This document shows, in pieces, positions 21,060-21,236 of a stretch of DNA of 64,000 nt. Numbering within the stretch: position 1 is the first letter of the stretch; every line of letters begins with the position of its first letter. The notes beneath the pieces are model-generated. The model was not told where the DNA came from. It made no database searches and saw nothing but the letters and a program-made list of their open reading frames with translations. The translations under genes and the position numbers were made by a program. This stretch comes from Escherichia coli (lineage in GTDB: Bacteria > Pseudomonadota > Gammaproteobacteria > Enterobacterales > Enterobacteriaceae), in assembly GCF_022846255.1 (NCBI RefSeq), contig NZ_AP025682.1. One strand, 5' to 3'.

Positions 21060-21075
21060 TGTGATATCAGTCACA
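21060..21075. promoter_or_regulatory. CRP (cAMP receptor protein) site in the mtlA / yibI divergent control region
   Basis: tgtgatatcagtcaca, a perfect TGTGA-N6-TCACA. Confidence 0.7.
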
Positions 21076-21103
21076 TAAATGTAGGGGGTAGAGAGGTAAT
21101 TGA

Positions 21104-21119
21104 CGTGATGCTCATCACA
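21104..21119. promoter_or_regulatory. CRP-like site (one mismatch)
   Basis: cgtgatgctcatcaca (GTGA-N6-TCACA). Confidence 0.5.
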
Positions 21120-21176
21120 AAATGCTTGTGTAAAAAAGCAACAAGGCGGCGATTTTCGCTAAAAATGGCATTTAAA

Positions 21177-21192
21177 TGTGAGTGATGTCACA
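21177..21192. promoter_or_regulatory. CRP site
   Basis: tgtgagtgatgtcaca, a perfect TGTGA-N6-TCACA. Confidence 0.7.
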
Positions 21193-21220
21193 TTTTTATT
21201 TTGATGGTTTGTTGAATCTT

Positions 21221-21236
21221 TGTGATCTGAATCACA
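21221..21236. promoter_or_regulatory. CRP site
   Basis: tgtgatctgaatcaca, a perfect TGTGA-N6-TCACA; the mtl promoter is known to carry multiple CRP sites. Confidence 0.7.

Follow-up and report, generated by a model that had tools for sequence, protein, structure and literature searches.

The CRP sites between mtlA and yibI in the window (the whole 64,000-nt stretch of Escherichia coli DNA analysed here) make up, with a probability of about 95%, the control region of the mannitol operon mtlADR of E. coli: an operator-promoter of Class III that depends on CRP and has five sites for it. The array is real, well understood and already described in the literature. Its features, and those of the genes on either side, are as follows.

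17173..17760, minus strand: mtlR, encoding the MtlR repressor, which lacks a DNA-binding domain and docks on pairs of CRP dimers (195-aa open reading frame; mechanism from PMC13421365)
17760..18908, minus strand: mtlD, mannitol-1-phosphate 5-dehydrogenase
19003..20916, minus strand: mtlA, mannitol PTS enzyme IICBA, the first gene under the array (open reading frame; so annotated where other E. coli genomes have the identical region)
21009..21044, minus strand: mtl core promoter, with -35 TGGACA at 21044-21039, -10 CAGATT at 21021-21016 and the transcription start site (TSS) at ~21009
21024..21037, plus strand: candidate Cra (FruR)-type box ACTGAATCGGTTAA, located between the two promoter hexamers
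21060..21075: CRP5, promoter-proximal, TGTGATATCAGTCACA, 10/10 core nucleotides; centre 21067.5, at -58.5 from the mtl TSS; pentamers 93% conserved in 11 other genomes
21104..21119: CRP4, CGTGATGCTCATCACA, 9/10; centre 21111.5, at -102.5, 44 bp from CRP5; pentamers 96% conserved
21177..21192: CRP3, TGTGAGTGATGTCACA, 10/10; centre 21184.5, at -175.5, 73 bp from CRP4; pentamers 99% conserved
21221..21236: CRP2, TGTGATCTGAATCACA, 10/10; centre 21228.5, at -219.5, 44 bp from CRP3; pentamers 100% conserved
21264..21279: CRP1, weak and distal, TGTGATCTACAGCATG, 7/10; centre 21271.5, at -262.5, 43 bp from CRP2
21453..21815, plus strand: yibI (DUF3302), the divergent neighbour

Sites were detected by a consensus and mismatch scan with shuffle controls. 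The exact motif TGTGA-N6-TCACA (TGTGANNNNNNTCACA) occurs only three times in the 64-kb window (21060-21075, 21177-21192 and 21221-21236), and when one mismatch is allowed the site at 21104-21119 joins the three exact ones, just as a preliminary description of this DNA had stated. Together the four sites span 177 bp (21060-21236) and, since mtlA is on the minus strand (20916..19003), they lie 144-320 bp upstream of its start codon. Exact sites are expected by chance with a mean of 0.06 in 64 kb, and three or more of them appeared in 0 of 100 dinucleotide-preserving shuffles; given the shuffle-derived background, the probability of at least four such sites (one mismatch allowed) in 177 bp is ~5e-11 per position and ~3e-6 window-wide. 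The sole other one-mismatch match in the 64 kb (TGTGTAGATGTTCACA, 47450-47465) falls inside the xylR coding sequence and is probably due to chance. Sites with three mismatches or fewer, on the other hand, occur at ~3.5 per kb in the window, and CRP1 is therefore not significant from sequence alone.

Short palindromes can arise by chance, and the cluster could in principle be such an accident, or be left over from repeated or mobile DNA, or belong to a structured RNA, and have no regulatory role at all. We give this virtually no chance, as it is already refuted by the shuffle results (0.06 exact sites per 64 kb) and by conservation: across genera the pentamers and their spacings are kept while the surrounding sequence drifts (see below). 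A repeat search returned the CRP sites pairing with one another as the sole repeats, with no longer repeat unit and no sign of recent duplication behind the 44-bp pairs. Moreover, an Rfam search of 20700-21600 gave no match at E <= 1, which places the palindromes outside any known RNA.

Five CRP sites were reportedly recognised in the K-12 mtlADR operator-promoter by Ramseier and Saier (1995, Microbiology 141:1901). A recent study that sums up and extends the work of Davis, Figge, Ramseier and Saier places CRP1 to CRP5 of the E. coli mtl operator at -262.5, -219.5, -175.5, -102.5 and -58.5, with centre-to-centre distances, from CRP1 to CRP5, of 43, 44, 73 and 44 bp, and with 7/10 conserved nucleotides in CRP1 and 10/10 in both CRP2 and CRP3 (Lee et al. 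2026, NAR, PMC13421365). Spacings in the window, read from CRP5 to CRP1, are 44, 73, 44 and 43 bp and equal the published values exactly; the core matches in the same order (10, 9, 10, 10 and 7 of 10) are consistent with that study on CRP1-3. Because centres and spacings reproduce the published architecture, the four sites first noted are CRP5, CRP4, CRP3 and CRP2. The preliminary description was thus right that four sites are present, but the published operator has five, and CRP1 (21264-21279) had been missed just outside the interval then given. It was also right to regard the region as the familiar multi-site control of the mannitol operon by CRP and as nothing novel, given the published positions and a gap-free alignment to K-12.

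In that alignment the mtlA-yibI spacer differs from that of K-12 MG1655 by 0 gaps and 13 substitutions over 536 bp. The K-12 operator-promoter is the same locus, identical in its five sites, core pentamers, spacings, -35/-10 hexamers, Cra box and MtlR, with only strain-level substitutions (13 of the 536 intergenic positions) setting the window apart; none of the 13 falls in a CRP core pentamer. Five are located in N6 centres (those of CRP3, CRP4 and CRP5): for example, CRP5 begins TGTGAC in the window and TGTGAT in K-12. The presence of 5 of 13 differences within the 30 N6 positions has a hypergeometric P of 4e-4 when counted per base, or ~0.015 if adjacent changes are taken as single events. 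The K-12 mtlA/yibI spacer also ranked first genome-wide in five of the six PhyloScan scan modes, and fourth in the sixth, with a matrix built from 87 footprinted CRP sites that may include the mtl sites in its training set (PMC1794230).

The 536-bp spacer is divergent, with mtlR-mtlD-mtlA annotated on one side and yibI-yibH-yibF-selA on the other, and it occurs in 5404 of 5426 complete E. coli genomes, several E. coli chromosomes being 100% identical to the window over it. In a ranked E. coli sample at 95.5-100% identity, the full-length matches (29 of 30) to a 291-bp query all measured exactly 291 bp, and so carry no net indels. Larger changes were seen at individual places. In E. coli GPEC1054, a chicken isolate, an IS21-family element (istA/istB; ~3754-6300 of locus L124, corresponding to ~21252 in the window) sits between CRP2 and CRP1, splitting CRP1 and yibI from mtlA and leaving CRP2-5 intact and still with mtlA; this natural variant fits the published dispensability of CRP1 (see below). 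The mtlA-mtlD spacer (18909-19002) is 94 bp long in the window, 229 in K-12 and 419 in strain A0 34/86, and its repeat content therefore differs between strains; in the window it holds two G+C-rich hairpins, CCCTCTCC..GGAGAGGG and GGGTGAGG..CCTCACCC, similar to boxC-type repeats. On the other side of the operator, yibH is followed in the window by yibF after a 70-bp gap (22955-23024) and then by selA; in K-12, yibH is flanked by the yibU, yibV and yibW remnants (locus L002, 1-1243), and that K-12 insertion is absent from the window.

What the spacing of the sites is for has been worked out in K-12. Lacking a DNA-binding domain, MtlR represses by forming a bridge between two CRP dimers bound 43-46 bp apart, with an optimum at 44-45 bp (PMC13421365). 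Gel shifts in that study showed cAMP-dependent CRP binding and an MtlR supershift, and chromosomal site mutants were also made: activation needs CRP2, CRP4 and CRP5, CRP3 contributes, and CRP1 can be dispensed with and is normally empty. During transport of mannitol the IIB domain of MtlA loses its phosphate and in this form sequesters MtlR at the membrane; HPr competes for the MtlR surface bound by IIB (PMC13421365). In the window the distances that fall within 43-46 bp are CRP5-CRP4 (44 bp), CRP3-CRP2 (44 bp) and CRP2-CRP1 (43 bp), and the MtlR encoded in the same operon as the array is 100% identical to that of K-12. Since the spacing recruits MtlR, it is functional in its own right, beyond the provision of several activator sites.

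The following sequence of events would then be expected. At high cAMP, CRP dimers would occupy CRP2-CRP5, with CRP5 probably meeting RNA polymerase in the Class I style and the upstream sites also required for activation. At the same time, CRP5 lies at -58.5 and the canonical Class I position is -61.5, a mismatch that counts against our own explanation. The sites would act in pairs, with 43-44 bp within a pair and the 73-bp gap between the pair of CRP3 and that of CRP4, and this geometry would allow an MtlR dimer to bridge adjacent DNA-bound CRP dimers and so repress the operon. Upon mannitol transport, dephosphorylated MtlA IIB would hold MtlR at the membrane, giving derepression. The window strain shares its sites, their spacings and the whole MtlR sequence with K-12, and other genera keep the architecture too; judging from this identity, the K-12 mechanism would run unchanged in the window strain, and the exact RNA polymerase contacts and the role of the 73-bp gap are matters on which we infer rather than observe.

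Several CRP dimers upstream of one promoter are also found at other Class III tandem-site promoters (malK/malE, glpT/glpA, mglB and acs). As with mtl, each of these operons has its own conserved spacing, but the values are different: among the matches listed from sampled Pasteurellaceae, malK/malE has 33 bp, glpT/glpA 51-52 bp and mglB 49-50 bp. The malK sites, 34 bp apart, recruit no MtlR unless their spacing is re-engineered to 44 bp (PMC13421365).

Could the palindromes serve a different protein? Their TGTGA-N6-TCACA core is similar to other Crp/Fnr-family boxes, and they might be bound by another regulator of that type (FNR), or form a CytR-CRP repression complex as at deoP2 and cdd. At CytR promoters the CRP pairs are ~52-53 bp apart and CytR itself binds the DNA between the CRP sites. 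We searched for both arrangements and consider them very improbable. The FNR box TTGAT-N4-ATCAA gave two-mismatch matches only, all of them the CRP sites themselves. The mtl spacer has no CytR octamers (GTTGCATT/AATGCAAC) between CRP sites ~52-53 bp apart, its CRP pairs being spaced by 44 or 73 bp instead; a single octamer with one mismatch (GTTGCTTT) does occur in the 73-bp gap, but it is not conserved across genera. Motif and spacing tests having failed, both readings were rejected, and the cAMP-dependent CRP binding in the published gel shifts (PMC13421365) likewise speaks for CRP. CytR-CRP complexes (deoP2, cdd, udp) resemble the mtl system in that a repressor contacts two DNA-bound CRP dimers by protein-protein contact; the difference is that CytR binds DNA itself, whereas MtlR, without a DNA-binding domain, needs a CRP spacing of 43-46 bp.

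The mtl architecture of paired CRP sites was next compared across genera. Species-representative genomes were scanned for pairs of perfect CRP sites with a centre-to-centre distance of 28-58 bp, giving at least 120 loci; the retrieval imposed one site pair (and so one 44-bp spacing) per locus and left the other sites and spacings free. Among the matches listed, 14 pairs form a histogram peak at 44 bp, and 12 of these 14 perfect 44-bp pairs lie directly upstream of an mtlA orthologue: five in Enterobacter and one each in Superficieibacter, Citrobacter, Klebsiella, Pluralibacter, an unclassified Proteobacteria MAG, an Orbaceae bacterium and Actinobacillus. The gammaproteobacterial 44-bp pairs among the matches listed are all mtlA loci; further tandem CRP pairs from Gammaproteobacteria are those of different operons and are spaced differently. 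Two further peaks appear among these matches, one at 32 bp (17 pairs, with many from actinomycetes and Firmicutes, e.g. Lentzea, Amycolatopsis, Saccharothrix and Ectobacillus) and one at 57-58 bp (14 pairs, several in Enterobacterales); they presumably represent operators of other Crp/Fnr- or Rex-type regulators together with other tandem CRP promoters.

At the mtlA loci, the CRP2-CRP5 spacing of 44/73/44 bp is identical in 10 of 10 non-E. coli Enterobacteriaceae, and 8 of the 10 genomes have an equivalent of CRP1, a two-mismatch site with a perfect TCACA half, exactly 43 bp beyond CRP2. Further away, the Orbaceae locus has one 44-bp CRP pair, and the Actinobacillus locus has three perfect sites with spacings of 40 and 44 bp. 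An alignment of 12 sequences shows the CRP2-5 pentamers to be 97% conserved vs 65% for the inter-site DNA and 57% for the N6 centres, which across genera are the least conserved class. The CRP1-CRP5 interval is gap-free in 11 of the 12 aligned sequences, and gaps are found in both flanks. At every locus whose flank extends that far, mtlR comes next after mtlD, and the Actinobacillus MtlR is 38% identical to that of E. coli.

The core promoter was located by reading its hexamers from the sequence and back-calculating the TSS (~21009) from CRP5 at -58.5. All 12 aligned genomes share its CTGGACAG and GTGCCAGATT without change. A generic sigma-70 and terminator scan of 20850-21500 did not call the mtl promoter, as expected since it is weak and activator-dependent; the scan gave one promoter-like and one terminator-like match, both at the level of shuffled sequence. 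The sequence ACTGAATCGGTTAA is an exact match to RSTGAAWCSNTHHW, which we take to be the Cra consensus; because it has five exact matches in the whole window, we can only infer the assignment, and 21024-21037 is best called a putative Cra box. In the literature, Cra and Fis are both named as further repressors of mtl. Downstream of the promoter, in the consensus fold of the mtlA 5' leader, the Shine-Dalgarno GGGGU and an ACCUC are paired with each other (20922-20926 and 20963-20967, minus strand), possibly as an anti-SD hairpin; neither side varies among 11 genomes, so the pairing gains no covariation evidence.

Conservation within the array is not confined to the pentamers. Two short blocks are nearly invariant in 12 Enterobacteriaceae genomes: TGTTnTTTTTTTACAC (T7ACAC in the mtlA sense; 21127-21143), in the 73-bp gap between CRP3 and CRP4, and ACCCCCT (21083-21089), between CRP4 and CRP5. 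The gap itself is invariant and corresponds to about seven helical turns. A Fis pattern had no match in the gap, and the conserved T-tract block is therefore not assigned to Fis. As a tentative and doubtful suggestion, CRP1, the 73-bp gap and both inter-site blocks may all be functional, CRP1 perhaps as a standby, MtlR-stabilised dock or in the service of yibI in E. coli, and the gap and blocks perhaps for an architectural factor, or an intrinsic bend, that joins both CRP pairs into a higher-order complex.

The preliminary description had called the region the mtlA / yibI divergent control region, and the array might indeed be bidirectional, with CRP1 and CRP2 also activating or repressing the divergent yibIH operon in response to cAMP. 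The CRP sites do lie within the shared 536-bp mtlA/yibI spacer. A sigma-70 promoter predicted for K-12 in the yibI direction, TCTACA-19-TACAAT (PMC3946193), overlaps CRP1 with its -35 hexamer, but at the place of its -10 hexamer TACAAT the window has TGAAAT. Promoter-trap data from uropathogenic E. coli (UPEC) point both ways: one urine-induced yibI insert reaches 329 bp upstream of the start codon (window 21124; insert ends were placed on the window by mapping through UTI89) and includes CRP1-3, but another insert selected in urine extends no further upstream than 144 bp (window 21309) and has no CRP site. These data place a urine-induced yibI promoter of UPEC within 144 bp of the start codon (window 21309-21452), an interval in which we observed the conserved blocks GTGTTATGGCGAGAATCGCGAAC and TTGTCAAAATATCAGCC; conserved yibI-proximal blocks at ~21344-21393 stand 70-120 bp from the CRP1 centre. 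According to the UPEC literature, a yibI mutant is less fit in urine.

Conservation bears on the same question. The left half of CRP1, ATGTGATC, is invariant in four genomes with yibI as neighbour, but the array is equally conserved where the neighbour of mtlA is yibF, selA, a PTS gene or something else. Among 12 other loci examined, yibI is next to mtlA in only two (one Citrobacter, one Enterobacter) and the array persists, so that the co-conservation test fails; moreover, the IS21-family element described above separates CRP2 from CRP1 in one strain, and the literature yielded no yibI TSS or crp-dependence data. Taken together, we think a bidirectional array improbable, and CRP control of yibI possible but unsupported. 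As the array is kept beside mtlA with varying neighbours, the name given to the region is correct by position and positional only: across genomes the array follows mtlA, not yibI.

For the mtlADR operator-promoter the result leaves current understanding of the CRP array unchanged. A reading from sequence only, proposed as a positive control for the recognition of regulatory motifs, hit an experimentally characterised array at the right coordinates, and it is mainly as such a control that it is useful. The cross-genus comparison adds modest independent support for the published spacing rule, and the mtl locus stands as a textbook-grade case in which a repressor, MtlR, reads the spacing of another protein's sites rather than the DNA sequence.
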